DNA of 64,000 bases from Planctomycetota bacterium (GCA_038227875.1 JBBRPR010000012.1:125619-189618), one strand, 5' to 3'; shown: positions 16,168 to 38,615, counted from the stretch's first letter. The notes: generated by a model from the letters alone, not told the origin. Made by a program: numbers and translations.

Positions 16168-16181
16168 TCCCGTGCATGAAG

Positions 16182-16206
16182 TAGTGAAGATTAGTGAGCT
16201 TTAGTG
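16182..16206 (+). promoter_or_regulatory. Putative MraZ-binding repeats
   Basis: TAGTG at 16182, 16192 and 16202 (exact 10-bp period) between the promoter and mraZ, like known GTG-containing 10-bp-periodic MraZ boxes. Confidence 0.7.
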
Positions 16207-16207
16207 G

Positions 16208-16717: not shown

Positions 16718-16763
16718 TGAGTTGAGTGGACCGGGGCGAAGTAAAGAAGAGGGGCGGTGCAAC

Positions 16764-17015: not shown

Positions 17016-17155
17016 AACGCAGCGCAGTCGTTGTGCTTTCCAACAGTACGCGGGACCTTGCGTAACCCGCGGCTGCGTGCCTCTCGCACCCGTTCGCATA
17101 TTTTGAAAAACCACGGCTCAGACCAGCCCCGGTGCTGAGCCCTTGGCGCCTGACT

Positions 17156-20384: not shown

Positions 20385-20387
20385 AAA

Positions 20388-20418
20388 TGGCTCTTGGCTG
20401 TTAGCTCTTGGCTCTTGG
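20388..20418. repeat. Heptanucleotide tandem repeat
   Basis: TGGCTCT-TGGCTGT-TAGCTCT-TGGCTCT-TGG between ftsI and murE. Confidence 0.75.
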
Positions 20419-20488
20419 GGGTGTGATCGCGACTGCGCCCAGCAGGATTCTTGAACTTCAGCAATGGCGAACTTTTCGGAGAGCTTCG

Positions 20489-21952: not shown

Positions 21953-21996
21953 GTGTTCGAGTGGAGTTTTTAAGTGGAGCCGCGGGAGCGACATTC

Positions 21997-23493
21997 ATGG
22001 GCGTGACATTATCTTCGGCTGCGACAGGCCTCCAGACGTCCGCGCAGAAGCTCGGCGACCTTGCCGTTGCCGCGGGTGGTTATCTGGCTCGCGGACGAGC
22101 GGACATGACGGTGCGCGGTATTTTCACGGACACGCGTACGCCGCTCAAGGGCGGGCTGTTTGTCGCCCTGCGAGGGGACAATTTCGACGGCAATCACTTC
22201 GCCGCCGATGCAATCACAAAGCTCGGCGCGGCGGCGGTGCTCATCGACCGACCTGAAGCGCTGGACACGCTGCCGCCCAACGCCGCGGCGATTCTCGTCG
22301 AAGATTCGCGCGAAGGATACCTGGGCATCGCTGCGCACCATCGCCGTCAGCTCAACCAGGTGCTCTGGATCGGCGTGACCGGCTCCGTGGGCAAGAGCAC
22401 CACCAAGGAGATGCTCGGCTACATTCTCGAACACGCGTCGGGCTGGCGCGATCAGGCGGCGTGCTGGAGCGTGCACCGCGCCAAGGAAAGTTTCAACAAT
22501 GCCGTCGGCCTTTCGCACACAATTCTCGCTGCGAACCGGCAGCACCAGGCGTCGGTGCTCGAACTGGGCACCAATCATCCCGGTGAGATCAAGCAGCTTG
22601 CCGCCGTAGCGCGGCCGCAGATTGCCGTGATCACCTGCGCGGCCGAGTCGCATCTTGAAGCGTTCGGCAGCATCGCCAATGTCGCGCGCGAGAAGGCGGC
22701 GATCCTCGCGTTTCAGACCGAGCGCGAAATCGCAGTACTGAACGCCGACGATCCGCATTTCGAACTCTTTCGCCAGGCCGCTCGCGGCCGCGTGGTTACG
22801 TTCGGCACTTACGCACATGCCGATTACTGCGTGCGACAGTTGACGCTGACGCAGGGCATGGCGCGATTCCTGATCCGCCACGGCGACAACATTGCCGAAT
22901 GTGCGCTGCGCGTTCCGGGCGTGCATCAGGCCATGAACGCCGCCGCCGCGATTGCGGCCGCCTGCAGCGCGGGGCGTGACCTGCAGGACTGCGCTGCCGC
23001 GGTGAGTCACTTCGACGGCGTCGCGCGCCGTTTTGCCGTGCGCACGGTTCGCGGCGTGACGGTGATCGACGACGCGTACAACGCCAATCCGGCCAGCTTC
23101 CGCTCTGCGCTGGCGACGTTGAAGTCAATGTCGGCGCTGCGCAAATTCGTGGTGGCTGGCGACATGCTGGAACTCGGTGACGCCACACACACTCTCCACC
23201 AGATGCTCGGCTCGCAGCTGGCGGAATGCGGCCTCCATCGTCTCATCACGGTCGGCGCGCTGGCGGGAGAAGCCGGTGAAGCGGCGATCGCATCCGGAAT
23301 GAAACCATCGCAGTGGCTGGAGTGCAAGACGCCCGAGCAGGCCGCGCAGCAGCTTACGCCGCTGCTGGAGCATGGCGATGTCGTACTGGTGAAGGGTTCG
23401 CACGGCATCCATCTCGAACGCTGCATTGAACGGCTTTGCGGAGACTTCCGGCCCGCTGCCAACAGCTCGCGACTGGAAGTGCGCACGGCTTAA
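21997..23493 (+). CDS. murF: UDP-MurNAc-tripeptide:D-Ala-D-Ala ligase MurF
   Basis: TDTR, GDNFDG, GVTGSVGKSTTKEM, SFNN, ELGTNHPGEI, DDAYNANP, GDMLELG, VKGS; start uncertain (21961 or 21997). Confidence 0.95.
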   Translation: MGVTLSSAATGLQTSAQKLGDLAVAAGGYLARGRADMTVRGIFTDTRTPLKGGLFVALRGDNFDGNHFAADAITKLGAAAVLIDRPEALDTLPPNAAAILVEDSREGYLGIAAHHRRQLNQVLWIGVTGSVGKSTTKEMLGYILEHASGWRDQAACWSVHRAKESFNNAVGLSHTILAANRQHQASVLELGTNHPGEIKQLAAVARPQIAVITCAAESHLEAFGSIANVAREKAAILAFQTEREIAVLNADDPHFELFRQAARGRVVTFGTYAHADYCVRQLTLTQGMARFLIRHGDNIAECALRVPGVHQAMNAAAAIAAACSAGRDLQDCAAAVSHFDGVARRFAVRTVRGVTVIDDAYNANPASFRSALATLKSMSALRKFVVAGDMLELGDATHTLHQMLGSQLAECGLHRLITVGALAGEAGEAAIASGMKPSQWLECKTPEQAAQQLTPLLEHGDVVLVKGSHGIHLERCIERLCGDFRPAANSSRLEVRTA

Positions 23494-24398
23494 CGGTCTT
23501 TGATCGCGAGTCCTTCGAGTTTCTTGAGATCGTCCGAGCGCCTGTAGTGGAACGCCCAGAGGAAGATCTGGTTGCGTTCGGGGAAGTGTTGCACGCCGAT
23601 CTTGTAGCGGAAGCAGACGCGGAAAATCTGGTCGGCGTGGCCCAGCGCCCAGATTGCGCGGCGTTGGTAGGCGACTCCGCCGTCCTCGCTTGGAATGAAT
23701 TTCGGGCCGCGCAGACCCGCGATTCCGTTCAGGAATTCCGCGGCGAAGACATTCAGCGGCCGGCCGCTCAGCGCCATATCCGCCAGTGAAATCAAAAAGA
23801 CATACAGTCGGCGGCTGCGCCACTCAAAGACCATCTGCTTGCGTCCCGAGAGGAAAATCGTTTCGGCGAGCTTAAAATCGCTGCTCAGCCGGAACGCAAA
23901 ATCGAACGTTTCCCAGGGAACAATGGGGCTGTCGTGGATTTTCAGCGAATCGGCAATGCTACGCAGCAGCTCCGTCTCCTTCGTGCCGCTGGTGTTGTGG
24001 ATTTCTTCTTTGTAGAAGTAGATCAGGAACGAGAAGAAGCGTCGTTGTTCGGTGGCCAGGCACGACGCGGCGAGCAGGTGGTTGCCGTCGGCCATCACGT
24101 ACAGCGTGGCGAACCAGCCCTTGGGCAGTTCCGACAATTCCTTGCTGCTGAGCGCCTGCTTTTTGAATGCGCGCCCGGCCTTGGCGTAACGCTGTTGGAT
24201 GCGCAGTGCGTTGAAGCGCGGCGGGAGGCGGGTCCATTCGGCGACCAGGCGCCGCACGGAGCCGTCGTCCATTTCAACATGCGAGCGGGTGGTGTTGGTT
24301 TCGTACGACGACATCTCCCACTCGTCGGGGACGCTGAACGAAATGCCGTCCCATGAAAAGGTGTGGAGTTTCGTTGCGGGAGTGGGCTTGCTTGGCAT
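23490..24398 (-). CDS. Hypothetical soluble protein, last gene of the ABC/RRE cluster
   Basis: 302-aa ORF with two apparently related halves (FSWDGISFSVPDEWE / WETFDFAFRLSSDFK); co-oriented with the cluster. Confidence 0.7.
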   Translation of the reverse strand: MPSKPTPATKLHTFSWDGISFSVPDEWEMSSYETNTTRSHVEMDDGSVRRLVAEWTRLPPRFNALRIQQRYAKAGRAFKKQALSSKELSELPKGWFATLYVMADGNHLLAASCLATEQRRFFSFLIYFYKEEIHNTSGTKETELLRSIADSLKIHDSPIVPWETFDFAFRLSSDFKLAETIFLSGRKQMVFEWRSRRLYVFLISLADMALSGRPLNVFAAEFLNGIAGLRGPKFIPSEDGGVAYQRRAIWALGHADQIFRVCFRYKIGVQHFPERNQIFLWAFHYRRSDDLKKLEGLAIKDR

Positions 24399-24630: not shown

Positions 24631-25371
24631 TCAGTGCGAGCCCACGCCTTCGATGCCGCCGATTTCGATGTTCACCTCGCCCTTCTTGGCGATGCGTTCG
24701 ATCTGGCCGTCTTTGATCCAGATCACGCGGTCGGAGGCGTTGAGCATTTTCAAGTCGTGCGTGGCGGTGATGATCGTGATGTTGCGGTCGTTCTTGAGGC
24801 CGTTGAGCAGCTTGATAATCTCTTCACCGGTCTTGAGGTCGAGATTTCCGGTCGGTTCGTCGGCGAGAATGATCGCGGGCTTGTTGACCAGCGCGCGAGC
24901 GATGGCGATGCGCTGCTGCTGGCCACCGGAGACTTGATGGGGGAGGTGGTCGAGGCGATGGCCGAGGCCGACCTGCTCGAGGACCTTCGCCGCGTCCTTG
25001 CGTGCGGTTTCCGGATCGATGCCGGCGAAGATGCGCGGAATGGCAACGTTTTCCAGCGCGGTCATTGTCGCGATCAGATTGAAGGACTGAAAAATGTAGC
25101 CGAGTTTGTGGCAGCGGACGAGCGCGAGTTGATTTTTGGAAATCGACGCGAGCTTGTAGCCTTCGACGGTGACGTTGCCGGACGTCGGCGTGTCCAAGCC
25201 GCCGATCATGTTAAAGAACGTCGACTTTCCCGAACCCGACGGGCCCATGATCGAGAGGTATTCGCCGCGAATGATGTCCAGCGTGATCCCGCGCAGGGCG
25301 TGCACTTCCTCGTGGCCCATGCGGTAGACCTTGGTGACGTTCTCGGCGCGGACGATGATGTTGTCGCTCAT
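24631..25371 (-). CDS. MacB/LolD-family ABC ATP-binding protein
   Basis: GPSGSGKST, GYIFQSFNL, VSGGQQQR, LADEPTGNLD, ATHD; ATGA coupling to the upstream permease fixes the start at 25371. Confidence 0.95.
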   Translation of the reverse strand: MSDNIIVRAENVTKVYRMGHEEVHALRGITLDIIRGEYLSIMGPSGSGKSTFFNMIGGLDTPTSGNVTVEGYKLASISKNQLALVRCHKLGYIFQSFNLIATMTALENVAIPRIFAGIDPETARKDAAKVLEQVGLGHRLDHLPHQVSGGQQQRIAIARALVNKPAIILADEPTGNLDLKTGEEIIKLLNGLKNDRNITIITATHDLKMLNASDRVIWIKDGQIERIAKKGEVNIEIGGIEGVGSH

Positions 25372-26051
25372 TCTTCCACCCTGAGCGCTTCGACGGGCTG
25401 CTTGGTGGCGGCCCAGTACGCCGGCGCGATTGAGGCAGCGACGGAAATCACCGTGCCGATGCCAAACGAAGCGGCAATGACGCCCATGATTTTCAGCCAT
25501 GGGCAGTAGGTCCAGGCAAAACCGTGGAAGCTGAACGTCGAAGCGGCGAACCCGAAAATCAGCCCGATGAGGATGCCGACGATAGTCGCCGCGACGCCCT
25601 GCAGCAGCGATTCGATGAAATATGTCTTCACGATGAACGAGTCAAGCGCGCCGACGCACTTCAGTGTGCCGATTTCCTTCACGCGTTCGGTCACGGACAT
25701 CAACATCGCGTTGACGATGCCGACCAGGCAGGTGATCAGCGATAAGGTGATGAGGATGAACATGCGGGTGTCGGTGCCGGCCATGCGCATCTTGTCGATT
25801 CCGGCATCCTGGAGCAGCGCATTGATCGCGTCGCGGTCGGTGGTGCTGACGTCGATCAGGGCGTGGACCATGACGTGGTTGACCAGCATGTAGCAGAGAA
25901 AGGCGATGGCCAGAATCACGCCGATCATGGCGACGAACGCGCGCATGCGGCGGCGCTTCAAGCTGCCCATGCTGACGGAAAAAACCACGGACCACGGCAC
26001 CGTGTAGCTTTCAGGCACATCCGTCGAAGTTGTCACGGCATTTTCAGCCAC
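25368..26051 (-). CDS. Small FtsX-like permease
   Basis: GIVNAMLMSVTERVKEIGTLKCVGA and PAYWAATKQPVEALRVE FtsX motifs; 4 TM with a very short periplasmic loop. Confidence 0.9.
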   Translation of the reverse strand: MAENAVTTSTDVPESYTVPWSVVFSVSMGSLKRRRMRAFVAMIGVILAIAFLCYMLVNHVMVHALIDVSTTDRDAINALLQDAGIDKMRMAGTDTRMFILITLSLITCLVGIVNAMLMSVTERVKEIGTLKCVGALDSFIVKTYFIESLLQGVAATIVGILIGLIFGFAASTFSFHGFAWTYCPWLKIMGVIAASFGIGTVISVAASIAPAYWAATKQPVEALRVEE

Positions 26052-26065: not shown

Positions 26066-29032
26066 TTACGCCGCGCGATCCAGATCGATACGCGAATTGG
26101 GCAGATTGAACCAGTACCCCAGCACAAGCACGAGGGTTACCACGATCAATTCGCCGACAATCAAACCAATGAAGAACGCGCGCACGCGCGTGTATGTATC
26201 ACGGCTGCCGTAGCGCGTCACCAGCGCCTTGGCCAGCCAGCCGAGGAAAATCGGGAACCAGTAGAAACGCATCAGCGGGTTGATCAGCATGATCATCCCG
26301 ATCGGATGCGGCAGCCAGAAGAGCGACTGGCGGAAGAAGAGCAGCGCCGCCATGGCCGTGGCGCCGGCGATCATCCACATGCCCAGCGAGAACGAGGCGG
26401 CCGGCGGATTCTGATTGACGCTCTTGAGCTGCGAATACAGATCCGGCGGCATGCCGGAGTAGAACCAGCCTTCCAGGCCGTTGGCGCCGTGCGCGTAGGC
26501 CATCATCAATGACGTGCCGATGGAGACGATCGCCGCCAGCGAAACGGCGACGACGATGGCCACGTGGTAGCGGCCGCGTTCGAGGCGCAGTTCATCGCGC
26601 ATTTTCAAACTGTTGGCGATCATTGGGGCGATGAACGATTTGATGTCGAGGAAAAAGACGGAGTAGTAAACCATGAGCGGGGTGAACATTGCCGGCGAAC
26701 TGTAGGACTGATCGAAGCCCAGGAACGTGCGGATAAAATGGAACGGACCGGCGAAGGCCTGGAAGCCCATGATGCCGCCCTCGGCGACCGCGCGGACCAG
26801 GCCGATGGTCAGCAGCAGAATTCCACCGAGGATCACCAGCGTGAAGCCGAGGTTCGCGCCCATGCCCTGCCACAGCATGAGAATCAGCCCGAGGGTGCAG
26901 CCGACGAAAAGACCCGAGGACCAGCGCAATTCGCGCTGTTCATCGAATTCCAATTCCTTCACGACGCTGGGTGCAAACGCGCAGAGGAGATATTTGCGAC
27001 ACGTGTACAGCGCGACGCTGGCGAACACGATCATCGCACCTTCACCCTGGGCGGTGGCGAAATTGAGCGTGTACCACCAATTGCTGGGGAACGAGTCCAT
27101 GTTCTCGCCGTAACCCAGTCCGCAAAGGATCAGCACCTGCAACAGGAAGAACAGGTAGAAGAACCAGAGCGAGAACGAGGTCTTCGCCGGCGTAAAGAAC
27201 GAGAGCCCGATCACGGTGAAGAAAATTTGCGACTGCGCGCGGGGGATCAGCGCTTTCAGGAACGTATCTTTGATGTACTCGGCCCAGCCACCGTCAAGAT
27301 TCAACGGCGCGATACCCTCAATCAGTCCGGCTTTGCTTAAAAAATTCCAACCCAGGATGCTGGCGGAAACGAAGAAGCCCAGCCAGAAGAGCCCGCTCTT
27401 AAACAGGTCGGGTACGCCACCCGGCTTCTCGTCGGAGTTTCCACCGATGATCATGGGCAGTTCGGCCAGTGGGTAGATCAGCTTTTCGTTGTGCGCCCAT
27501 TGGCGGAAGATCAGCACGTTGAACGTCATCAGGATCACGTAGGTCAGAATCGCCAGCAGTCCCCAGCGCCAGAGCACCGGCCACCACTGCGCCCATGGGG
27601 TGTCGCCGAAGAGGTAGCGCTTGGTCGAGACGTCGAACGACGGAAACTGCGCCACGATGGCACTCAACTGCGTGCGAGCCGCAGCGGCGGTCAGTTTGCC
27701 GGCAGTGATCTGCGTCGAAAATTGACGGAGATCGGCGACACAGGTCTTGATGCGGTTGGCGATTTCGAGTTGCTGATCCTTATTTGTCCGTTGCAGCGTG
27801 AGGCGGTCGCGCTCGGCCTGGGCGCTGGCCTTCTGCTTGTTCAGGTCCTTGATCTCGGCGGTCAGCTGCGCCATCTGTTCCATCGAAGCGCTCCGCTTGG
27901 CGGCGGTGCGTTTGGCCAGTTCCTGGTCGAGGCGTTCGATCTCCGCGCGGAGGTGTTCGACTTCGGCGATCAGATTTGACTGTGCAGCCGCGACGTCTTT
28001 GGCATCGCTGAGCGGTTCGAGCTTCGTGATCGCATTTTGCAGTGCACTGTCTTCGGACGATGCGACGAGGTCCTCGTCTTTGAGCGCTGCGAGTTTCGTG
28101 TTGAGTTCAGTCAGTCCGCTGAGCGCCGATGATCCGGTCGTCAGGCGATGCAGGCGGCCCCAGTAGCTTTGCGAATCGTCGCCGGGCACAGGGATGATGC
28201 CGGGATAGGCCTGCATCGTTTTTGGCAGGCCGCGCCGGAAGAGCTCAACCTTGGCGGCCGCTTTGTCGGTCAGTTGTTTCAGCGATTCCCTATGCGCCTC
28301 GACGAGCTTCTTCTGTTCGACAATTTGCGAGGGATACGTTTTGACGATCTCTTCGGGCGCGGGCGGGGGAGGGTTCTTGCTGGCGGCGTAGTTCTTCCAG
28401 AGCTTCTCCGCGTCGTCGGCGTAGCGTTGTGCGCGCGCGACGGCTGTTGCATGCGCGGGCTCCGGCAGGGCCTCTGCGGTTTTGACTTCGGCCTTGCGCG
28501 CCACGACGTCGTCGGCGAGTTTCTGGACCTTGCTCAGGTCTTCGTAGCGCACCAGGACTTCGCGGTACTCCTTCGCGGCGTCCTGGATGCCGGGCTCGGC
28601 CAGGAAATAATTTTCGCTGACGAACGGTTCGACGTAGCGGTTCCATTCGGCCTGCTCGGTGTTCCAATCCTTATAGAACATGCTGCCGACGATCGGCACC
28701 ATCTGCATCGTCAGTCCGTAGATCGAAATGCCCGACGAGACGGCGCCCATGATGAAGACGATCAGGATTTCGGGAATCGTAAACGGCTTGATGAAGCGAA
28801 TCAGCTTTAAGAAAGGATTGAGCAGCAGGACCATCGCCAGCAGCAGCGCGTAACACAATGGTGCGATCTGCGTCGACGCGATGTAGACCGGCGACGACGT
28901 GTTCATGCCGAGGATCGCGACGTAGGCGAAAAACGCGGAGAAGAACGCCCCCGCGAGCATCGCGCGGAAGGTGATCATGCGGGGTTTCTTCACGTTCGTT
29001 TCAGACACAATGGTTCCCAATTTCCCAAACAC
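26066..29032 (-). CDS. Polytopic membrane protein (DUF6785/DUF6784-like, OPT-related) with large helical insertion
   Basis: FRQWAHNEKLIYPLAELP and WLPHPIG..FFIGLIVGE motifs; many TM segments; about 320-aa charged helical insert. Confidence 0.7.
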   Translation of the reverse strand: MFGKLGTIVSETNVKKPRMITFRAMLAGAFFSAFFAYVAILGMNTSSPVYIASTQIAPLCYALLLAMVLLLNPFLKLIRFIKPFTIPEILIVFIMGAVSSGISIYGLTMQMVPIVGSMFYKDWNTEQAEWNRYVEPFVSENYFLAEPGIQDAAKEYREVLVRYEDLSKVQKLADDVVARKAEVKTAEALPEPAHATAVARAQRYADDAEKLWKNYAASKNPPPPAPEEIVKTYPSQIVEQKKLVEAHRESLKQLTDKAAAKVELFRRGLPKTMQAYPGIIPVPGDDSQSYWGRLHRLTTGSSALSGLTELNTKLAALKDEDLVASSEDSALQNAITKLEPLSDAKDVAAAQSNLIAEVEHLRAEIERLDQELAKRTAAKRSASMEQMAQLTAEIKDLNKQKASAQAERDRLTLQRTNKDQQLEIANRIKTCVADLRQFSTQITAGKLTAAAARTQLSAIVAQFPSFDVSTKRYLFGDTPWAQWWPVLWRWGLLAILTYVILMTFNVLIFRQWAHNEKLIYPLAELPMIIGGNSDEKPGGVPDLFKSGLFWLGFFVSASILGWNFLSKAGLIEGIAPLNLDGGWAEYIKDTFLKALIPRAQSQIFFTVIGLSFFTPAKTSFSLWFFYLFFLLQVLILCGLGYGENMDSFPSNWWYTLNFATAQGEGAMIVFASVALYTCRKYLLCAFAPSVVKELEFDEQRELRWSSGLFVGCTLGLILMLWQGMGANLGFTLVILGGILLLTIGLVRAVAEGGIMGFQAFAGPFHFIRTFLGFDQSYSSPAMFTPLMVYYSVFFLDIKSFIAPMIANSLKMRDELRLERGRYHVAIVVAVSLAAIVSIGTSLMMAYAHGANGLEGWFYSGMPPDLYSQLKSVNQNPPAASFSLGMWMIAGATAMAALLFFRQSLFWLPHPIGMIMLINPLMRFYWFPIFLGWLAKALVTRYGSRDTYTRVRAFFIGLIVGELIVVTLVLVLGYWFNLPNSRIDLDRAA

Positions 29033-29048: not shown

Positions 29049-31046
29049 TCAGTACACCAGCGGCGACATCATCTTGATCAGGATCGTAATTGCCACGGAG
29101 ATCATCGCGATCAACCCCGTCCCGCACGCGAATCCCGCAGCCAGCACTGGAGCGTAGCGGTACCACATTTCGCCGAACTTCTTGTGAAAGTAATAGCGCC
29201 CCAGGAACGCGCCGGTCAGTTCCAGAAGCGCGGAGCAGGGCATGTTCTGCCCCAGGCCGCGGACAACGCCGAAGACCAGGAGCGTCGGCATGCCGAAGAA
29301 GGAGAGAACGAAGAACGAGCCCAATCCCGTGCCCAGTCCCCAGAGAAAATTCGGCCACTTCCACGCTTCGAGGAACGGCGAGGTTCCGCCGGTGGTTGCG
29401 CTGAAGGTCAGCGCAGTCTGCTTGGCTTTCAAGTCCCACATCTGCTGTGCGTAGGGATAGGCACCGGACGGGATGTCGGCCATCTGCCAGAGCAATTGCG
29501 AGAAGATCAACGATGAGATGACGACAATCGGCAGCACGACGATCGTGGCCTTGATCACGCTTTTAAGTTTGGTGCCGGTGAGTTCCATGACGCGGAACGA
29601 GACGGTGGCTTCGCCGTAATTGGGAATCGGCGCCGGCGCGAACCAGATCTTTACTCCTTGATAGCCGCTGAGAATAAACGTCGCTTCTTTAATCAGCGGG
29701 ATGCTGACCGCCTGGCCGGCGAGGCCTTCGAGCTTCGCTGTCGCGTAGGAAATCAGCGGCGTGTAGACCGTCGCGTAGAACGCGAAGAATTGCCACGGGA
29801 AACCTTCGATCAGGTAGCATGAGAGGACAATCCAGAATGTGCTGGTGAAAACGTAGATGCCCAGCGCGGCGTAGATCGAAAAGTCGCCGCGCCGCGGGTC
29901 GTTGGTGACCAACCGTTGCCAGGCGCTGGGCTCCGACGCATCGACGCTCTTGTCTTTGGCCACGCCGGCCCTGGCGAGCCTCCGCAGCGCGATCATTGGC
30001 GCGATGATTTGAATCATGCTGATGATGACGATGGCGATGGTCTGCCCCACGCCGAACGACAGGTAGAAGTCGACGGTGTTGCTGTAGAGCGTATCGGTCA
30101 CCCGCATCTGCGGATTCCAAGTGGTGAGAATGCCCCACTTATAGAGCAGCGGATTGAGGATGAACGTGGAGAGCACCCCGATCGCGCTGCCGATCACCGC
30201 CCAGAACGGCAGCACCATACCCCAGATGATCGAGCCGATATCGAAGGAAAAGTTGACCGGCGTCGCGGGAAGCACGGAGGATGTTTGCGGCGTGAAGTCG
30301 ACCCAGGGAATGGGCAGCAGTTCGATCTTCTTGCTGAGAATCTGTGAGGTAATCGCCGGGATTCCGATATAGATCGAGGCGAAAATGATTCCCACCACGC
30401 CGCCGATCGAGAAGCAGCGCCAGCGCCACGGTTCCTTCGAGCCCTTCGGATCCGTCAGTGCCGTGATGCCCGACGCGCTGACCGGCGCCATGGGAAACGG
30501 CAGCTTTTCGACGTCGTTGGTGATGCGGTAAAGAACGTAGCCCAGTCCATATTGATCGAGCTTGCCGATCACCAGCCCCAGCGAACAGAGCATAATCGGC
30601 GTGAACCAGCCAGCGGTGAAGAAGGTGCGCCCGCTCGCACGGATCGTCGCCGCCGAGGGCGCGAACCAGGTGGGAATATCCTGCGCCATGCCCATGGAGC
30701 GCATCGCGTCGGACTGGACGAGGTACTGATTCCAGAGCAGGCCTTCAAAGGGGGAACTCAGCGCCATGCCGGACATGAAGAAGAGGATGTAGACTTCCTG
30801 CACTTTCAATTCTTTGAGCGAGCGGCGGGCAATTTCGGCGAAGAGAATGACCGTGACCCACTTTGCCGCGTCGCTGACGCCGCCGGATCCACCGACGAAG
30901 AGATTCAGGTACATCGACGCCGGGAGCATGAAGAAGCCCACGAACGCCGCGCCGGCCGCCGCACGCCAGTTGAAACCATCCTCGAAGTGCTCGGGCGGTT
31001 TCATCAGATCGCGGTAGCGATTGAGTTCTGCGTCCTGTTTGAACAT
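29049..31046 (-). CDS. OPT/YSL-superfamily-like membrane transporter
   Basis: FEDGFNWRAAAGA at the N-terminus; DVEKLPFPMAPVSASG matches the EKLxF/YP-type OPT motif; about 14-16 TM segments. Confidence 0.65.
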   Translation of the reverse strand: MFKQDAELNRYRDLMKPPEHFEDGFNWRAAAGAAFVGFFMLPASMYLNLFVGGSGGVSDAAKWVTVILFAEIARRSLKELKVQEVYILFFMSGMALSSPFEGLLWNQYLVQSDAMRSMGMAQDIPTWFAPSAATIRASGRTFFTAGWFTPIMLCSLGLVIGKLDQYGLGYVLYRITNDVEKLPFPMAPVSASGITALTDPKGSKEPWRWRCFSIGGVVGIIFASIYIGIPAITSQILSKKIELLPIPWVDFTPQTSSVLPATPVNFSFDIGSIIWGMVLPFWAVIGSAIGVLSTFILNPLLYKWGILTTWNPQMRVTDTLYSNTVDFYLSFGVGQTIAIVIISMIQIIAPMIALRRLARAGVAKDKSVDASEPSAWQRLVTNDPRRGDFSIYAALGIYVFTSTFWIVLSCYLIEGFPWQFFAFYATVYTPLISYATAKLEGLAGQAVSIPLIKEATFILSGYQGVKIWFAPAPIPNYGEATVSFRVMELTGTKLKSVIKATIVVLPIVVISSLIFSQLLWQMADIPSGAYPYAQQMWDLKAKQTALTFSATTGGTSPFLEAWKWPNFLWGLGTGLGSFFVLSFFGMPTLLVFGVVRGLGQNMPCSALLELTGAFLGRYYFHKKFGEMWYRYAPVLAAGFACGTGLIAMISVAITILIKMMSPLVY

Positions 31047-31099: not shown

Positions 31100-34000
31100 T
31101 CAGGCCACGGGCCCGGCACTCACGACTTTCATCGATTCTTCCGCCGCCAGCGCGTAGGCGGACTGCTCCTGCTTGCTCAGGCTGCGCCAATGCATCAGGT
31201 ACGTGCGCAGTTTTTCGAGGAACGGTTTGTTGGTCGTGACCCAGTTGGTGTCCTGACCCGAAACTCGAACCGTCGTGAGCATGATGCCATAGGATTGTAC
31301 GCGCTCATCGTACGCAGCGGTGAAGGTCACCCGTTGCGTTACGCCAAGATCAAAAGGAGCGAGTGCCAGGTCGTACGAGAGCGAGTACGTGTCGCGGCCC
31401 TTGTCGTCCTTGCCTTTGTTGCGCGAGGGATGCGACGCGATCAGATCGCCCATCGACGCTTCGGTAAAGCGCGCGAAGTATTCTTCCAGGTAGCCGACGA
31501 CACCGCTGACGACTTCCGGGTGATAGATGAAGGGGAACGTGGTCTTCATGGTGTGGCCATCGTGTTCGGGGAACGACCATTTGCGTTTTCCTGACGGCAC
31601 TGCCGCACGGGTCGCCACGATGGCGGGATAGAGCGTCGAAACCAGAACCATCGAAATGGTGAAGAGGATCACGTAGATGACCTTCAGCGACGCGAAGTTG
31701 AGGTCGATGCCGGTGATGCCCAGATGAATCAGCAGGATGCTTAAGAACTGCCCGATCAGATACCCGCCCACCGAACCGACAATGCCATACACAAATGCTT
31801 CGGAAAGAAAGAACATGCCGATGTGATTGGGATTGAGTCCGATCGCGTTGTAGATCGCGATCTCCCGTTTGCGTTCGAAGACGGAGCCGAGCATGGTGTT
31901 GAGAATGATCGTGCCGGAGATCAGCAGCGGAATGATCAGCGAGGCGAGATTGCCGACGGCGGTTTTGAATCCCGAGCCGATGTAGTATACGCCGGAGCTC
32001 ATCGTCTGGGCGTCGTTGCCTTTTGTGGTTTGGTCTTCCGAGCCGCTGGCTTTAAACGGAGCCTGGCTGGCGATATAGAAATTCGCCTGCGTCTCTGTGA
32101 GCAGGTGGAGCACGTTCTTCCAGACGTCCTGGTTTTCGGCGTTGAAGCGGATTGAAATGCTGTACGGTGTCGCGCCCATGCGCTCGGCGCGTTCGACCGG
32201 CAGGATCAACATGGTCGACGTGTCGTTGTACAACCCGGTCTGATCCTTAGCCGCGCCGGCTTCGCCGCCAGCACCGGGGACAGCCGCCGGATCCGCAGCG
32301 CCTTCCTTCTGCGGCACGAGCAGGTATCCATCGATGTCCTTCATGCGACGGAAAGATTCGTCGTCGACGATGCCGGCGACCGTGAAATCGACGTCGCGGA
32401 AATGAATTTTTGCCGTGGCGATGTTCTCTTTGGTGATGCCGAGCACTTCGGCGATGCTGTTGGGGATGAGCACTTCGTCGGCGCGGTCGGACGTGAAGTA
32501 ATGTCCCGCCAGCAGCGGCATGCGGCCGAGGAATCCGTCTTCGAGCATGGACAGACCGAGCACCGATTCGATGCGCACCGTTTTGCCGCTCGGCGCTTCG
32601 GCAACAAAGGGCTGAACCATGCGGTCGTACTGCGCCTGTAGCATCCAGCGCCGGACATTGATGTCGCCCTTGCCGTAGAACATTTCGCGGAAGGCGGTGA
32701 GCGATGCTTCGTCCATGCGCTTGCCGGGCCAATGGTACATCAACCCGGTGTACGGCGGAATATCTTTAGAGACCGAAACGGTGGTGGGGCTCATCGTCTG
32801 CGAAATGCTGGTGAACGAAAGCATGGTGAACGTGATCAGGACAATCGTTGCCGTGGTCAGCGCCGTGCGCACACGGCGGCGGCGCATGTTGTTGACGCCG
32901 ATCAGCATCGCTTTCTGCCCGACGGTGCCGTAGCCGACGTCCGCGCCGTCGTGGCCGGCGAAATTCTGGAAGAGCAACGTCATCTCGCCTTCAAAACGGC
33001 CGTGCAGAATCTTGACGACAAAGGTGGCCAGGCCCCCCATTACAAAGGCGATAAGAATCCCTTCCGGTGCCTTGGCGATGGCGAACGCGGGATGGATTTC
33101 GCGGAAGAGCACGTATGCGAGCACGAACAGACCGAAGAACGCGCCGATCTGCGCTTCGATCTTGACCACGTTGAAGAGCAGTTTCTGCATGAAGAAACAG
33201 AAGGGTAGAATCAGCGCCATGTAGAAAATCACGCCGCGGAGCATGTCGTTTGTGGTGCCGGCCAGTTGCAGATAGGCCTGGCGTTCGGCGCCCATCGCCG
33301 TGTGCTGTGCCTGCAGGTAGGCGGTGTAATCGTTGGCCTTGCGCTTAGCGGCGGCTTCGTCCAGATGCGCTTTGCCCTGTTTCATGAAATCGCTGGCCAG
33401 CTCAATCGAGACGCCGTGCAGACGGCCCAGGCGGAAACGGTTGAGCGCATCGAGATCGCGGGCGGCCGCGGCGAAGTAATCGGGACCAAGTTGTTGCGGC
33501 GAATCGTAGCCGATGCCTTCGGGCTGTTCGGTCGTGGAATTCAGTGCAGGGACTTGCGTCAGAATCTTTACGCTGGCGGCGGTCGGATCGATATAGAGGG
33601 AGCCTGGAAAGGAGGACGTCGGGATCGCGGTGGTGTAACGTTTGCCGGAACCGCCGAGCACCAATCCGCTCGCCCCCATTTTCTGAGGCGGAGATTCGCG
33701 CTTGCCGTCGAGAGGCCTGAAGTCGGTCACGGCAATCGGAGAAACGGCGATCAGCGCCGGATTATCACGCGTCAGAATTGGAAACTCGCGGCACTGGAAC
33801 ATCACGAACGACTGACTGGTCAAATTCATCGCGAAGTTCGAGGTCAGCGTCGCTTCCTTTTCACCGCCGTCGACAGTTTGCAGCACCTCGCGGTAGTCCT
33901 TGTCCATTTGAAAGGCGTTGTTGAGTACGTGAACTACGTAGTGATTGATGCAATAGAAGGTGACGGTGGCTCGTTCGTCGGTCAATTGGCTGTAGGCCTG

Positions 34001-36076
34001 CACGACATCGCCAACAACGGCTTGCGCGACACTGACGTTGCGCAGTTGGACAAACGCATTGGATACGAGAACTTCAGGTAGCACCGCCGAAGAAAATTTA
34101 TCGAACTGCAGCGTCTTAATCTGCAACGGCCAGGCTGTGCGCCCGTTCGGATTGGGTTTGCCCAGTCCGGAAACATCCGTGGCGAGCATGCTGCGCAGCA
34201 ATTCCTGGACGTACGCCGACTGGCTTCCGACAATCTGCGCATCGAGGCGGCTAAACGTATCCTCAGGTGTGAAAATGCGGTCGCCAAAGGCGAAGACGTC
34301 GAGCAGCGCGAGCGCGGGCGTTTTCTGGCTGGTCTGGATGTACATGAGATCGCCGGGCGCCGCGAAGTAGTAACTCTCCGGCAGCCCGCCGTTGAACGTC
34401 ATGGTATCGACGAGCGGATTTTTGCGGCCGGCCTTCACCCCGGGGAGTTCCGCGGACATCTCCATCAGCTTTGCGCCGTAGCGGTTTCGCCAATCGGGGT
34501 TTCCCCAGGAACTTCCCGAAGAAAATCCCAGCGATTTTCCATTCCACGACATTTGCAGCGACAGCGCCCACGTGACGTTGCGCCCCTGCAGCGCCACGCG
34601 AATGGCGTTGTTCGCTTCAATCTGATCCAGATCGGCCTGGTTAAGTTTGGCCTTGTTCACCTCCCCGTTCAGGACTTCGTCGACGTTCTTGCTTAAGATT
34701 TCCACTTCGTCGGCGGTCAAGTCGCTGAACTTTTTCGTGCGGCCATACTTGTTGAAGAGCATTTCAATGCTGAGCAGGCGCTGGTAGTCGATTTTCGCCT
34801 GCTGCGATTTTTCCGCGTCGACTTCCCGGCTCTTGGCGAGATTGGCGGCCGGCTCGATCTTGTTCAGCAGTGCTCGTTTGACCGGCAGCTGCTTGCCCGT
34901 CGACGTGTCGATCTGTTCGCGCAGGGTCACCAGCAGATCTTCCACCGCCTGCTTTGCGGCAGCGTCGTTGGGCGCGTCCTTGGCTTTATTCACGAGCTCC
35001 GACAGGTTGCGGTAGTGCGACGCGTACATCTCCTCCAGGCGCATGTCCTGCAGGATCATGTCGCGGACGGTGTCGAGGTCCTTCATCGGCGCGCAGAGAT
35101 GCGTGGCGAGCATGCGTTCGCCGAGGTAGTTCTGGGTGTGCGCGTTGACGGCGACGAGAATCACCGAGCGCGCCGGCGGCATGGCCTTGTAGGCTTTCAG
35201 CAGCTGCGTCAGCAGAAACAGATTCGCGCCGGCCTGCGCGCCCGCAGCGCGTTCCGGGATGATCGCGTTGGAATCCAGCGGCGCGTAAATCACGCAGACG
35301 TCGTTTTTCAGCGTCGCGTCGGCACCGGGGACGAGCACCCAGGGATCGCGGAGGTACGTGTTCTTCCAGATCGACGGCTCGCAGTTGAAATCGGCGTCAA
35401 TAGTGCCCGTCTTCAATGCTGCGATGAGTTTCTTGCCGTCGTCTTCAGAGACCGCGAAGCGCGGCACGGCCGTTTCGGTGTCGTACACTTTGGAGTAGGC
35501 GTCGACGCCTTCAATGTGCCCCGATGGCAAAAAGATAAAACCTTTGACGCCAAAACGCAGCAACCGGACCCAATTGATGCCACAGTTAAAGTCCAGCACG
35601 ACGACCGAGCCGCTGAGCTCCGTGCCCTTGATCGCGGCGAGGTCTTCGAGCTGGCCACGGCCGAGGTAAATCAGCGGCGCTTTGAAAGCCGTTTCCTTGA
35701 AGTTGCCCGGCCGCATCAGCGACGGATGCAGTGGCTGCAAGGCGTAGGTCGTCCCGCCGACAGCCACGGAGCTCTTGCCGGGGACGAACACGGGCGTCTG
35801 GAAACGGATCGCGCCGTGATCGAAACCGCTGGCCGCGAACAACTGCGCGACTTTTTCTTCCGTTTTCGTATTTCCGTCGCTGCCCGGAAAACGGACCTCC
35901 GCGCCCTTGAAGAATTCCTGGAGCTCTGTGAAATACTGTGCGCTGGCTTCCGGAGTCGCCCAAGGCCCCGTCGACGGGCTCACGCCGGGATCTTCGGCCC
36001 GTGCGTCCCCGTGTCCCGCCAACAGGCCGACGAGCGTCAGGGCAGCGATCAATGTAAGTGAGCGGCTAAAGGTCAT
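31100..36076 (-). CDS. Giant FtsX-family permease with N-terminal M28-peptidase/PA-like ectodomain
   Basis: ATG 36076 (ATGA overlap) plus signal peptide; PA-like APLIYLGRG; M28-like APLDS; NMRRRRVRTALT and LNTMLGSVFERKREIAIYNAIG FtsX motifs. Confidence 0.8.
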   Translation of the reverse strand: MTFSRSLTLIAALTLVGLLAGHGDARAEDPGVSPSTGPWATPEASAQYFTELQEFFKGAEVRFPGSDGNTKTEEKVAQLFAASGFDHGAIRFQTPVFVPGKSSVAVGGTTYALQPLHPSLMRPGNFKETAFKAPLIYLGRGQLEDLAAIKGTELSGSVVVLDFNCGINWVRLLRFGVKGFIFLPSGHIEGVDAYSKVYDTETAVPRFAVSEDDGKKLIAALKTGTIDADFNCEPSIWKNTYLRDPWVLVPGADATLKNDVCVIYAPLDSNAIIPERAAGAQAGANLFLLTQLLKAYKAMPPARSVILVAVNAHTQNYLGERMLATHLCAPMKDLDTVRDMILQDMRLEEMYASHYRNLSELVNKAKDAPNDAAAKQAVEDLLVTLREQIDTSTGKQLPVKRALLNKIEPAANLAKSREVDAEKSQQAKIDYQRLLSIEMLFNKYGRTKKFSDLTADEVEILSKNVDEVLNGEVNKAKLNQADLDQIEANNAIRVALQGRNVTWALSLQMSWNGKSLGFSSGSSWGNPDWRNRYGAKLMEMSAELPGVKAGRKNPLVDTMTFNGGLPESYYFAAPGDLMYIQTSQKTPALALLDVFAFGDRIFTPEDTFSRLDAQIVGSQSAYVQELLRSMLATDVSGLGKPNPNGRTAWPLQIKTLQFDKFSSAVLPEVLVSNAFVQLRNVSVAQAVVGDVVQAYSQLTDERATVTFYCINHYVVHVLNNAFQMDKDYREVLQTVDGGEKEATLTSNFAMNLTSQSFVMFQCREFPILTRDNPALIAVSPIAVTDFRPLDGKRESPPQKMGASGLVLGGSGKRYTTAIPTSSFPGSLYIDPTAASVKILTQVPALNSTTEQPEGIGYDSPQQLGPDYFAAAARDLDALNRFRLGRLHGVSIELASDFMKQGKAHLDEAAAKRKANDYTAYLQAQHTAMGAERQAYLQLAGTTNDMLRGVIFYMALILPFCFFMQKLLFNVVKIEAQIGAFFGLFVLAYVLFREIHPAFAIAKAPEGILIAFVMGGLATFVVKILHGRFEGEMTLLFQNFAGHDGADVGYGTVGQKAMLIGVNNMRRRRVRTALTTATIVLITFTMLSFTSISQTMSPTTVSVSKDIPPYTGLMYHWPGKRMDEASLTAFREMFYGKGDINVRRWMLQAQYDRMVQPFVAEAPSGKTVRIESVLGLSMLEDGFLGRMPLLAGHYFTSDRADEVLIPNSIAEVLGITKENIATAKIHFRDVDFTVAGIVDDESFRRMKDIDGYLLVPQKEGAADPAAVPGAGGEAGAAKDQTGLYNDTSTMLILPVERAERMGATPYSISIRFNAENQDVWKNVLHLLTETQANFYIASQAPFKASGSEDQTTKGNDAQTMSSGVYYIGSGFKTAVGNLASLIIPLLISGTIILNTMLGSVFERKREIAIYNAIGLNPNHIGMFFLSEAFVYGIVGSVGGYLIGQFLSILLIHLGITGIDLNFASLKVIYVILFTISMVLVSTLYPAIVATRAAVPSGKRKWSFPEHDGHTMKTTFPFIYHPEVVSGVVGYLEEYFARFTEASMGDLIASHPSRNKGKDDKGRDTYSLSYDLALAPFDLGVTQRVTFTAAYDERVQSYGIMLTTVRVSGQDTNWVTTNKPFLEKLRTYLMHWRSLSKQEQSAYALAAEESMKVVSAGPVA

Positions 36077-36432
36077 CGGATGGCGATGGAGATGATGCAC
36101 CGTTGAAGGAGGGTCTTCAGAAACGACACAATGCACATCTCCGCTTCCCTCGGGTGAACTTTGAAACGGGCCACGAATTCATCTTTCAATTGCAGTGCGG
36201 TCTTCTTGCCGTCGATCTGCGTCAGCACGAACGCGCCGAGCGCATCGAGCTCAAAGCGGCGATCGAATTCCTTGGGACGCAGCATTCCCAGCAATCCGGG
36301 CGCGCGTTTCACGCGCACTGAAACGACGAGGACGCCGCCGGACTTCTCCTTCCAGGAGACTTCCGGATTCACCACCGGCACTCCCATCAGCGAGTGCTTG
36401 CGATCAATGCGTTCCAGTGTTGCCTTCGCCAT
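36073..36432 (-). CDS. PqqD-family / RiPP recognition element (RRE)-like protein
   Basis: FELDALGAFVLTQIDGKKTALQLKDEFVARF....AEMCIVSFLKTLLQRCII is the PqqD winged-helix pattern; GGAAAAGG upstream. Confidence 0.85.
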   Translation of the reverse strand: MAKATLERIDRKHSLMGVPVVNPEVSWKEKSGGVLVVSVRVKRAPGLLGMLRPKEFDRRFELDALGAFVLTQIDGKKTALQLKDEFVARFKVHPREAEMCIVSFLKTLLQRCIISIAIR

Positions 36433-36470: not shown

Positions 36471-37211
36471 TTAAACAACTTCGTTTCCAATCCGTCCAAT
36501 TTTGATGTTCAAATTCTTTCGTTCTTCCAGCCGGTCGACCTTGCCATCGCGGATCCAGAGGATGCGGTCGGAGACGTCGAGCATTTTCATGTCGTGGGTC
36601 GCGGAGATGATCGTGATTCCTTCAGTCTGCTTTAATTCGAGCAGCAGCTTGATCATTTCCTCGCCGGTCTTCACGTCCAGATTCGCGGTCGGTTCGTCGG
36701 CCAGGATGATCACCGGATCGTTGGCGATGGCGCGGGCGACGGCGACGCGCTGCTGCTGTCCGCCGGACATTTCGTACGGCCGGTGAAAGATGCGTTCACC
36801 CAGTCCGACGCGGGTGAGAATCTTCGCCGCCTTTTCGCGCGCGTCGTCGGCAGCGGTGCCGGCGAAAATCATCGGCAACATTACATTTTCCAAGGCCGTG
36901 AGCACCGGCAAAATATTGTACGATTGAAAGATGTAGCCGATCTTGTGGCAGCGCATCCACGCCAACTCGTACGAATCGAGCTGTGCCACGTCGATTTCAT
37001 CGATGAACACCATTCCCGATGTCGGCGAATCGATGCCGCCGATCATGTTGAACAACGTCGACTTCCCCGAGCCCGACGGCCCCATGATCGAGAGATACTC
37101 GCCGCGGTACACGTCGAGAGAAACGCCGTCGAGCGCCTTGATGACTTCGTCACCTTGCGCATAGACGCGTTTCACGTCGAGAGCTCGAATGACGATGTCC
37201 CGTGTGTCCAT
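36471..37211 (-). CDS. MacB/LolD-family ABC ATP-binding protein
   Basis: GPSGSGKST, GYIFQSYNI, MSGGQQQR, LADEPTANLD, ATHD; close paralog of 24631-25371. Confidence 0.95.
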   Translation of the reverse strand: MDTRDIVIRALDVKRVYAQGDEVIKALDGVSLDVYRGEYLSIMGPSGSGKSTLFNMIGGIDSPTSGMVFIDEIDVAQLDSYELAWMRCHKIGYIFQSYNILPVLTALENVMLPMIFAGTAADDAREKAAKILTRVGLGERIFHRPYEMSGGQQQRVAVARAIANDPVIILADEPTANLDVKTGEEMIKLLLELKQTEGITIISATHDMKMLDVSDRILWIRDGKVDRLEERKNLNIKIGRIGNEVV

Positions 37212-37377
37212 GCAGTGAGCAGCCCGTTGAAAGTCTATTCCGCCAGATTTTTCCGAGAAACGCCTGGCAGTAAAGGCGTTTCGCGGCGGGTCAGGGTTTA
37301 TCAACGGGCTGTTACGCCCGGCCTGAAAATGAGGATTGCTATGAATACACCGAGCTGCGCCTGTGCGCTACCACAGG

Positions 37378-37440: not shown

Positions 37441-37833
37441 CTATTCCACCGCCGGTTCGCCAGAGAGCGCGTTTGCGGGTACGGGAACGGGCCGGGACTG
37501 CGTCATCCGCCGGGCTTCGATGGCCTTTCGTCCGTAGCTGGAATCCAGATACAAATTGTAGGCGGAGACGATGAACGGGAAGAGATTCTGAATAACGCCG
37601 ACCATGTCCTGCTTGGTGCTGAAGACGAAATACGCCAGCGTTGTGATGCTGCCCACGAGGCTCATGACCCAGAACAGGCGCGGAGTAATCGGCTTTCCGG
37701 CTTTGCGGGAGTAATAGGCCTGCACGAACCAGCGCGACGCAAAGAACAGCGCGCCGATCATGCCGATAATTTTCCACGGAGTTACAACGACAGGCGAGCC
37801 GAAGAGCAGTCCTTCGTAGATATGCGAATTCAT
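37441..37833 (-). CDS. Lipid-A-disaccharide synthase N-terminal (LAB_N)-like membrane protein
   Basis: WKIIGMIGALFFASRWFVQAYYS....PRLFWVMSLVGS...LAYF....D.VG; follows a GT2 gene. Confidence 0.85.
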   Translation of the reverse strand: MNSHIYEGLLFGSPVVVTPWKIIGMIGALFFASRWFVQAYYSRKAGKPITPRLFWVMSLVGSITTLAYFVFSTKQDMVGVIQNLFPFIVSAYNLYLDSSYGRKAIEARRMTQSRPVPVPANALSGEPAVE

Positions 37834-37874
37834 CACCCCTCCGAGATGCTCCGGTTGTCCGGCGCAGGGTAGAT

Positions 37875-38615
37875 TTATAATTCTTCGCACTCATATTGCA
37901 AGCCACGACTTTGCATCCAGCGCACCGCAAATGCATCCCGCAAGGCCACAAACGTGCGCCCGAAACCGCTGCCGTATTTTGGCGTGCCTCCCGCACGGGG
38001 TCGGTGGTTGACGTCGACTTCGACCACTGTACCGCCCTGCATCCGCACCAGCGTGGTAAAAAAGCGATGCATCCCGCGGAAAAGCTTCATTCGCTTTGCG
38101 TACTCGCTGCGAAACGCTTTGAGGCTGCAGCCGGTATCTCGGACGGGATCGCCGGTGATCCAGATGCGCACGCGATTGGCAATGCGCGATTGAATGCGCC
38201 GGAAGAATGTGTCTTTCCGCCTGGCGCGCCGTCCGGCGGCGCAGGCGGGCTTATCTGGATTTTCCAGCGCGGAAATCAGCAGGCCGATGTCGGCGGGATC
38301 GTTTTGTAGGTCTGCATCGATCAAGACAATGTACGTTCCGCGCGCCGCGCGGATACCCGCTTCGAACGCGCCGGACTGGCCCTGATTTTTCAGCAAGCGG
38401 ACGATGCGCAGCGAAGGATACTGCTTCTTCAACTCCTGGAGGAGTTCGCGCGTGCCGTCGGTAGAACAATCATCCGCGCAAATAATTTCGAACGGTCGCT
38501 TGAGCTTGGTCAGTTCGCAGGCGGCTTCCTTAACGAATTCCGCGATGCATTCTTTCTCGTTGTAAACGGGCGCGATGAGCGAGATGTGGGGGTGTGTTGC
38601 GCTATCCAATGCCAT
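37875..38615 (-). CDS. Glycosyltransferase family 2 (polyprenol-phosphate glycosyltransferase, DPM1/ArnC-like)
   Basis: PVYNE, DDCSTDGT, NQGQSGA, DADLQNDP, DTGCSLK, GMHRF, HRPR. Confidence 0.93.
   Translation of the reverse strand: MALDSATHPHISLIAPVYNEKECIAEFVKEAACELTKLKRPFEIICADDCSTDGTRELLQELKKQYPSLRIVRLLKNQGQSGAFEAGIRAARGTYIVLIDADLQNDPADIGLLISALENPDKPACAAGRRARRKDTFFRRIQSRIANRVRIWITGDPVRDTGCSLKAFRSEYAKRMKLFRGMHRFFTTLVRMQGGTVVEVDVNHRPRAGGTPKYGSGFGRTFVALRDAFAVRWMQSRGLQYECEEL

Follow-up and report, generated by a model that had tools for sequence, protein, structure and literature searches.

A type VII ABC permease with a predicted M28-type pseudo-peptidase ectodomain in a Planctomycetota bacterium

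Our analysis of a 64,000-nucleotide stretch of genomic DNA from a Planctomycetota bacterium (GCA_038227875.1 JBBRPR010000012.1:125619-189618; hereafter the window, with positions counted from its first letter) identified a giant membrane protein whose first periplasmic loop opens with an M28 peptidase fold bearing a PA-like insert, and which also contains an FtsX/MacB-type module. This protein belongs to the type VII (MacB/FtsX/LolCE-like) ATP-binding cassette (ABC) permeases, and its peptidase-like domain is very probably an M28 pseudo-peptidase in this clade. As a variant of the type VII ABC class, the system is genuine, conserved and so far unstudied. We propose, at roughly even odds (a probability of about 0.5), that the dead-peptidase domain is moved by an ABC motor within a type VII system that includes membrane proteins resembling oligopeptide transporters (OPT). 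A sequence-only reading of the window had described the segment 34250-35950, equivalent to residues 63-629 and contained within the pseudo-peptidase domain, as a nicastrin-like inactive M28/PA ectodomain fused to an ABC permease. The fold, the loss of zinc ligands and the fusion are all borne out by the data presented here; the likeness to nicastrin holds only as an analogy and at the level of the superfamily.

Results

The first periplasmic loop opens with an M28 fold and a PA-like insert

The open frame encoding the permease spans 31100-36136 on the minus strand (1678 codons) and extends upstream to a GTG at 36136 (P0001). Residue numbers are counted from this GTG; numbering from the ATG at 36076 (M21) is lower by 20. 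The ATG, which overlaps the stop codon of the upstream gene as ATGA, is likely the true start, and the matching database record P0002 has 1658 residues. Both motif strings quoted in the sequence-only reading, including VIYAPLDSNAIIPERAAGAQAGANL, with APLDS at residues 285-289, are present in the translation of this conserved gene. The parts that concern the peptidase-like domain are as follows.

31100..36076, minus strand: giant permease gene, 1658 amino acids from the ATG at 36076 (open reading frame list and translation)
36014..36064, minus strand: N-terminal hydrophobic helix, membrane anchor or signal sequence, residues 25-41 (hydropathy scan)
34172..35959, minus strand: PA plus M28-fold predicted pseudo-peptidase domain, residues ~60-655 (AlphaFold2, Foldseek, VIA)
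Roughly residues 125-265: PA-like insert in the M28 core
34589..35086, minus strand: all-helical insertion of ~165 residues within the M28 fold, residues 351-516 (DSSP on the model, helices at model residues 311-476)
34271..34555, minus strand: second half of the M28 core, holding Q528 and F622, the latter in ...RIFTPEDT...

An AlphaFold2 (AF2) model of residues 41-679, built on alignment A1, has a mean pLDDT of 91.1 and a pTM of 0.89. A Foldseek search with this model gave 89 matches in the PDB at E<=0.001, with the aminopeptidase 2ek8 (E 1.1e-17), BSAP, transferrin receptor 1 (TfR1), PaAP and GCPII at the top. Superposition by VIA-align yielded Z scores of 25.2 for BSAP (375 residues aligned), 24.6 for TfR1 (390 aligned), 23.8 for the Shewanella M28 protein 3iib (387 aligned), 23.3 for the Aeromonas aminopeptidase 1amp (root-mean-square deviation 2.9 A over 254/291 residues), 22.7 for the S. 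griseus aminopeptidase and 19.6 for GCPII. A VIA search independent of Foldseek placed M28 proteins at the top (Z 21-24), followed by M42, M20 and M18 enzymes (Z 16-20), and also listed the glycosylphosphatidylinositol (GPI)-transamidase chain 7wld_G (Z 16.3). Neither nicastrin nor nicalin appears among the best 50 rows of the two VIA lists, in which rank 50 corresponds to Z 22.3 and 16.0, respectively.

The alignments cover 375-390 residues with M28 proteins that contain a PA domain, against ~255 with M28-only enzymes, and these 120-130 further residues confirm the PA-like insert proposed earlier from the sequence. The profile alignment to 2ek8 likewise runs across the PA region of that enzyme, and the window permease gives no Pfam PA match even at E<=10. 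The helical insertion at residues 351-516 corresponds to a gap in the distant relative P0064.

Relatives of the permease link it to the M28 superfamily

In searches with the window permease itself, including a separate scan of its N-terminal 659 residues, Pfam M28 (PF04389) was not matched even at E<=10, and phmmer comparison of the ectodomain with the PDB gave no meaningful match and no M28 protein; the M28 assignment therefore cannot be confirmed from the permease sequence alone. Query residues 40-1000 retrieved 63 homologues at E<=1e-3, nearly all of them 1600-1850 residues long, and where a name is given it points to metagenome bins of Lentisphaerae, Kiritimatiellae, Victivallales and Planctomycetota. 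The most distant, P0064, matches residues 63-341 with 26% identity (E 3e-23) and is the one among 12 homologues scanned that bears a Pfam Peptidase_M28 domain (47.2 bits). A profile of 42 sequences that includes P0064 (A1) matched 2ek8 at E 1e-6 and nicalin at E 8.2e-4, with no nicastrin match at E<=1 in the PDB, and a profile restricted to 25 sequences of the window clade (A2) reached 2ek8 at E 0.06 only. The match to 2ek8 thus becomes significant because the profile contains either the bridging relative P0064 (A1) or a wider set of sequences (A9, below).

Searching 1.84 billion representative sequences with an ectodomain profile (A4) gave 1903 matches at E<=1e-3, 1290 at <=1e-10 and 679 at <=1e-30; lengths of 1500-1900 residues predominate among the 150 matches listed. 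Among 28 distant giant permeases scanned, FtsX was found in all 28 and Pfam M28 above cut-off in 16. One of these relatives, P0143 from Armatimonadota, is named 'M28 family peptidase' by NCBI and shows similarity to BSAP and 2ek8 in its N-terminal part (E 5.7e-10). A superfamily profile of 37 sequences with a mean column identity of 17% (A9) matched 2ek8 at E 4.5e-22, BSAP at 2e-18, 2anp (the Glu151His mutant of the Aeromonas aminopeptidase) at 5.5e-10, nicalin at 4.5e-9, the Aeromonas aminopeptidase at 1.3e-8, TfR1 at about 4e-6 and nicastrin at 1.5e-3, the last over nicastrin residues 273-351.

The metal site is lost and a vestigial pocket is conserved

Two motifs frame the former active site. 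Their equivalence to M28 motifs was taken from alignments, and conservation was counted over 42 relatives and over a pool of 209 superfamily sequences.

35219..35284, minus strand: motif APLDSNAIIPERAAGAQAGANL, residues 285-306 (APLDS...GANL), with P286 in place of the first zinc His, Q301 in place of the bridging Asp, and D288 kept
35114..35170, minus strand: motif RSVILVAVNAHTQNYLGER, residues 323-341, with H333 at the catalytic Glu and T334 at the ligand Glu

In the family profile, APxD aligns with HHD of 2ek8. The second motif is anchored through P0143, in whose alignment to BSAP (E 5.7e-10) AHFDS pairs with AHYDS and NAHY with GAEE, so that the NAH of the H333 motif aligns with the AE of GAEE. 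The TPxDT block around F622 aligns with YHTPNDT of 2ek8 in a weak second stretch. The zinc-ligand roles given to these positions follow the numbering of the Aeromonas enzyme:

First zinc His: P286 in the window; His in 0/42 relatives
Bridging Asp: Q301 in the window; acidic in 5/42 relatives
Catalytic Glu: H333 in the window; Glu in 0/42 relatives
Ligand Glu: T334 in the window; Glu in 0/42 relatives
Second Asp: Q528 in the window; Asp or Glu in 27/42 relatives
Last His: F622 in the window; His in 0/42 relatives

The sequence-only reading had noted that the His and Asp of the first motif are gone; these are P286 and Q301, and the loss extends to every ligand, with 0/5 retained in the window permease (P286, Q301, T334, Q528 and F622) and the catalytic Glu replaced as well. 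In this clade the domain is therefore not a co-catalytic zinc peptidase.

Across the pool of 209, aligned to the clade profile, the first-His position is occupied by Pro in 81 sequences, Tyr in 73, His in 14 and Phe in 14, and the bridging position by Gln in 69, Glu in 62 and Asp in 23, and at the catalytic position 175 sequences have His and a single one has Glu. The pattern indicates that the entire fused superfamily has given up the Glu-Glu pair, with some clades keeping a partial site; P0143, for instance, retains three possible ligands (in AHFDS, PGAES and LDL). The Asp of the H-x-D motif, D288, is kept in 206/209 sequences, and two glycines are nearly as constant (G299 in 199/209, G339 in 200/209). 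Conserved residues of the vestigial site comprise D288, N305, N331, H333, E340 and R341. Judged by these alignments, D288 and H333 are under selection, and their conservation across the superfamily argues for a pocket that is still at work.

The carrier is a permease of the type VII ABC class

Hydropathy indicates eight hydrophobic helices in the permease (25-41, three in 967-1044, 1093-1111 and three in 1394-1499), which gives the order N-terminal anchor, ectodomain 1 (residues 42-965), three helices, cytoplasmic loop, FtsX module and cytoplasmic tail. Ectodomain 1 forms the first periplasmic loop, ~920 residues long, and is placed in the periplasm because the N-terminal hydrophobic helix (residues 25-41) precedes it. 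The remaining parts of the protein are the following.

33242..34132, minus strand: remainder of ectodomain 1, residues 669-965, beta-sandwich domains and then a three-helix stalk into the membrane
33005..33238, minus strand: three transmembrane helices, residues 967-1044 (hydropathy)
31640..32860, minus strand: FtsX/MacB-type module, consisting of transmembrane helix 5, a predicted second periplasmic domain (1112-1393) and transmembrane helices 6-8
31103..31624, minus strand: conserved cytoplasmic C-terminal domain, residues 1505-1678 (conservation in alignment A8)

Fusion to an ABC permease, as proposed from the sequence, is evident from the sole Pfam match of the protein, FtsX (PF02687, residues 1400-1510, 53.2 bits against a cut-off of 25.5), and from profile matches of the permease family to the PDB entries of MacB (5lil, E 4.6e-11) and LolC (E 2.4e-10). 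NCBIfam models gave weak matches only, of the LolC/MacB/FtsX type. The loop joining transmembrane helices 5 and 6, the first pair in the module, measures 282 residues by hydropathy. Its Pfam counterpart, MacB_PCD (PF12704), scores above cut-off in 4/12 homologues scanned, and the MacB periplasmic domain 3ftj matches the family profile weakly (E 0.7). A layout with two FtsX modules in one chain was considered and dropped: the middle helices (967-1044) compare with the FtsX helices at an hhalign probability of 0.6%, and one module is therefore counted in the permease, not two.

An AF2 model of residues 640-965 (pLDDT 89.9) shows the beta-sandwich domains and the three-helix stalk, for which a structure search returned nothing beyond generic matches to Ig- or prealbumin-like folds and helical bundles (Z<=9.2). 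The C-terminal cytoplasmic domain, ~170 residues long, has no Pfam match; it contains conserved stretches such as ALAPFDLGVTQ and SGQDxNW.

The permease belongs to a conserved module with OPT-like proteins

The genes encoded alongside the permease in the window are listed here in their order along the minus strand.

36471..37304, minus strand: LolD/MacB-type ABC ATPase 1 (PF00005, 117 bits)
36073..36432, minus strand: PqqD-like protein, 119 amino acids (Pfam PqqD, 28.5 bits)
29049..31046, minus strand: polytopic membrane protein of 665 amino acids, divergent OPT relative
26066..29032, minus strand: OPT-like membrane protein of 988 amino acids, DUF6785 and DUF6784 (Pfam, 223.6 and 76.8 bits)
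25368..26051, minus strand: small FtsX-type permease of 227 amino acids that has no large periplasmic domain (Pfam FtsX, 59.6 bits)
24631..25500, minus strand: ABC ATPase 2 (PF00005, 116.5 bits), kept beside the small FtsX gene
23490..24398, minus strand: 302-amino-acid protein, often last in the module (tblastn matches in 10/25 loci)

We set this arrangement against 25 related loci taken from genome bins. In each of the 20 loci whose sequence continues beyond the permease, an OPT-like gene comes after it, the remaining five ending within about 5.1 kb of the permease start, and the 665-residue protein specifically is found downstream in 18/25. ATPase 1 is present in 18/25 loci, the PqqD-like gene in 17/25, where it adjoins the permease, and the small FtsX gene in 15/25. 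In the 2120-residue protein P0176, the peptidase-like FtsX permease and DUF6785 plus DUF6784 are fused in one chain. P0176 represents a cluster of 56 members, with several full-length Latescibacterota records on different contigs, and this fusion argues for a physical complex between permease and OPT-like protein.

The best NCBIfam models for ATPase 1 are LolD and MacB, the LolD model TIGR02211 scoring 223.8 bits, below its cut-off. The PqqD-like gene is translationally coupled to the permease, its stop codon overlapping the permease start as ATGA; its product, of a peptide-chaperone fold, has no signal sequence. The window copy of the 665-residue protein has no Pfam match, its family profile found no solved structure, and BLASTP detected no similarity to the DUF6785 protein. 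Orthologues match Pfam OPT in 5/18 cases (best E 3.4e-7), and ESM Atlas look-alikes, which we treat as a lead only, are automatically named peptide transporters and DUF6785/DUF6784 proteins. The common OPT link of the 665-residue and DUF6785 proteins is drawn solely from these Pfam matches in orthologues and Atlas look-alikes. Residues ~130-470 of the 988-residue protein form a long Ala/Glu/Lys-rich, coiled-coil-looking insert between the first helices and the DUF6785 core. As listed, the open frames for the small FtsX protein and ATPase 2 share ~130 bases, and an internal Met of ATPase 2 (MSDNIIV...) would coincide with the FtsX stop codon, a hint of translational coupling here as well. The 302-residue protein has no Pfam match above threshold.

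Beyond the module, the window encodes a family-2 glycosyltransferase and a small LAB_N (lipid A biosynthesis N-terminal) membrane protein just upstream (37441-38615, minus strand), which are conserved as neighbours in 0/25 loci. Part of a dcw-type cell-wall cluster, in which two Mur ligases come after a class B penicillin-binding protein, occupies 18441-23493 on the plus strand, and an open reading frame with a type IV pilin- or pseudopilin-like N-terminus (FTLIELMIVVAII...) lies at 39263-39823 on the plus strand.

A paralogous module and a patchy distribution

The same genome carries a second, paralogous module on another contig (L028, G000:C6:93000-112000, genes 6388-17391, minus strand), composed of a 787-residue FtsX protein, two ABC ATPases, a 1734-residue giant permease and a 691-residue OPT-like protein that is 44% identical to the 665-residue protein of the window. 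The paralogous permease matches Pfam M28 with 47 bits, and its motifs keep a His and a Glu (CHFDT, DDECQYHLGSR). Among genomes sampled from the phylum, 29/201 contain a profile match at E<=1e-10 (15/128 of the high-quality genomes). Full-length orthologues of the window clade (E<1e-200) occur in four genomes of another family (f48); in the three genomes of the window's own family, matches reach only E 1e-23 to 6e-28 and cover part of the profile, a patchy distribution.

Discussion

In conjunction, the structural, sequence and neighbourhood data lead us to propose a model in which the giant permease would be the working subunit, facing the periplasm, of a hitherto undescribed type VII system and would pair with the small FtsX protein and two ATPases, in a manner similar to LolC with LolE. 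ATP hydrolysis would move the stalk helices and, with them, the dead-peptidase domain, whose conserved vestigial pocket may bind a ligand (peptides or protein termini being the likeliest candidates) and exchange it, in one direction or the other, with the OPT-like permeases. A receptor or gating role of the domain can reasonably be inferred, and naming the ligand as a peptide is a tentative and rather doubtful step. Mechanotransmission, in which ATP hydrolysis is turned into movement of a periplasmic domain, is an established mode of MacB-type systems (PMC5985334, in excerpt), and YbbAP-TesA provides a hydrolase-coupled MacB-type example (PMC12646458, in excerpt).

Several points weigh against this proposal. 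The M28 link depends on bridging relatives and predicted structure, the match of the window protein itself not being significant, and the peptide theme shared by M28, OPT and PqqD is circumstantial. Conservation of the pocket was counted over 209 sequences that were returned by searches and are no random sample, and about a third of them (70-75) have gaps in the columns of the last two ligands. Six loci with 1.7-10 kb of upstream sequence (L003, L008, L009, L016, L024 and L025) lack both ATPase 1 and the PqqD-like gene. The second periplasmic loop of the window permease gives no Pfam MacB_PCD (PF12704) match, and no second FtsX module was found inside the permease, which leaves the proposed partnership with the small FtsX protein a guess.

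Could the domain be a pure scaffold? In such a case the dead M28/PA domain would act as a rigid spacer or as a surface for dimerisation or contact (with peptidoglycan, the outer membrane or OPT-like periplasmic loops, for instance), with its pocket idle, comparable to the protease-like domain of transferrin receptor. All metal ligands are gone, the non-catalytic transferrin receptor is among the best structural matches (Z 24.6), and large additions such as the helical insert, the beta-sandwich domains and the stalk are typical of architectural ectodomains. However, the retention of D288 in 206/209 and of H333 in 175/209 sequences, at a mean column identity of 17% (A9), is unexpected for an idle pocket, and we consider a mere scaffold a possible but somewhat unlikely explanation.

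It is also conceivable, if quite improbable, that the domain is still an enzyme, performing a different chemistry by means of His333 in the general-base position and Asp288, with a single metal possible in clades that have a His, an acidic residue and an Asp, and with the ABC motor serving as a switch, as FtsEX does for cell-wall hydrolases. A His replaces the catalytic Glu in 175/209 superfamily members, and the best Aeromonas aminopeptidase entry of the superfamily profile, 2anp, is described in its PDB title as a 'functional' Glu151-to-His mutant. Three possible ligands persist in some members, such as P0143 (AHFDS, PGAES, LDL), and the paralogous permease of the same genome keeps a His and a Glu. 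The window protein, on the other hand, has none of the five ligands (Pro, Gln, Thr, Gln and Phe in their places), and we know of no metal-free M28 chemistry, which we count against an enzymatic role.

Least probable of the three is an adaptor whose ectodomain binds and regulates a separate periplasmic effector, as FtsX does with EnvC, PcsB or RipC, the OPT-like proteins being unrelated operon passengers: protein partners are common in type VII systems (PMC7668044, PMC10694151 and PMC12646458, in excerpt), but the 25 loci reveal no conserved secreted-partner gene in the module, and the OPT-like gene is present in 20/20 informative loci and fused to the permease in Latescibacterota.

What are the closest relatives of this ectodomain? 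They are the PA-M28 aminopeptidases of bacteria, together with the group formed by transferrin receptor and GCPII. The aminopeptidases (BSAP/YwaD, 6hc6/6hc7; Aneurinibacillus AM-1, 2ek8; P. aeruginosa PaAP, 8acr; Shewanella, 3iib) share the fold of M28 core plus PA insert, with VIA Z scores of 23-25 over 375-387 aligned residues. They are soluble, secreted zinc enzymes with a full His/Asp/Glu/Asp/His site and a Glu-Glu pair, whereas the window domain has Pro/Gln/Thr/Gln/Phe and a His at the base position, contains the ~165-residue helical insert and forms a loop of a polytopic ABC permease. TfR1 and GCPII (M28B) are likewise membrane-anchored PA plus M28 ectodomains with an added helical domain, TfR1 being non-catalytic; unlike the window permease, they are eukaryotic single-pass type II proteins that operate without an ABC motor. 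Their helical domain is C-terminal, and the helical part of the window domain is inserted.

Nicastrin, a component of gamma-secretase, and nicalin, found in the BOS complex of the endoplasmic reticulum translocon, are likewise zinc-less M28-derived ectodomains of membrane-embedded machines. The nicastrin-like label of the sequence-only reading is thus correct to the extent that the proteins share a superfamily and that the profile hits the block it had named (nicalin 4.5e-9, nicastrin 1.5e-3); 2ek8 (4.5e-22) and the transferrin receptor are far closer, and the domain is a member of neither the nicastrin nor the nicalin family. Distant bacterial superfamily members carry PGAE[SQ], which we take to resemble the nicastrin segment quoted in that reading. 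Its placement of the nicastrin DYIGS motif in an equivalent block agrees with the profile match to residues 273-351, which includes E333 and DYIGS at 336-340 (PMC2647162, in excerpt). Nicastrin and nicalin are single-pass proteins with other partners (presenilin/APH-1/PEN-2 and NOMO/TMEM147, respectively), in contrast to the eight-helix window protein with its FtsX module and its ABC and OPT-like neighbours. The receptor role of nicastrin and nicalin is debated. We deem it unlikely that the giant permeases are a bacterial counterpart of nicalin and nicastrin, possibly even their kin, in which a dead M28/PA ectodomain serves as an ABC-moved substrate receptor feeding OPT-fold permeases; if true, they would constitute a new class of ATP-assisted system for handling peptides or protein termini in the cell envelope of several phyla.

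Type VII ABC systems drive efflux, lipoprotein release, activation of cell-wall hydrolases and lipid extraction. With described members (MacAB-TolC, LolCDE, FtsEX-EnvC, YbbAP-TesA and BceAB) the window system shares the four-helix FtsX module, here with a putative periplasmic domain after its first helix, a neighbouring gene for a LolD/MacB-type ATPase and, in our model, periplasmic work by mechanotransmission. Among the described members a peptidase-fold ectodomain is absent and OPT-like partners are not reported, and the window permease exceeds them by ~1000 additional N-terminal residues and three additional helices. The 2018 review of the type VII family contains no occurrence of 'peptidase' or 'M28' (PMC5985334), and our literature searches returned nothing on this permease family or on DUF6785/DUF6784.

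A type VII member with a dead-peptidase working domain and constant OPT-fold partners would add a new job to the class, and the OPT-like DUF6785/DUF6784 proteins would gain their first functional context. The superfamily is large, with 1903 representative clusters at E<=1e-3. The system provides a clear example, from bacteria, of a peptidase fold put to non-catalytic use in a membrane machine, in parallel with the evolutionary step that gave rise to nicastrin, nicalin, GPAA1 and the transferrin receptor in eukaryotes.

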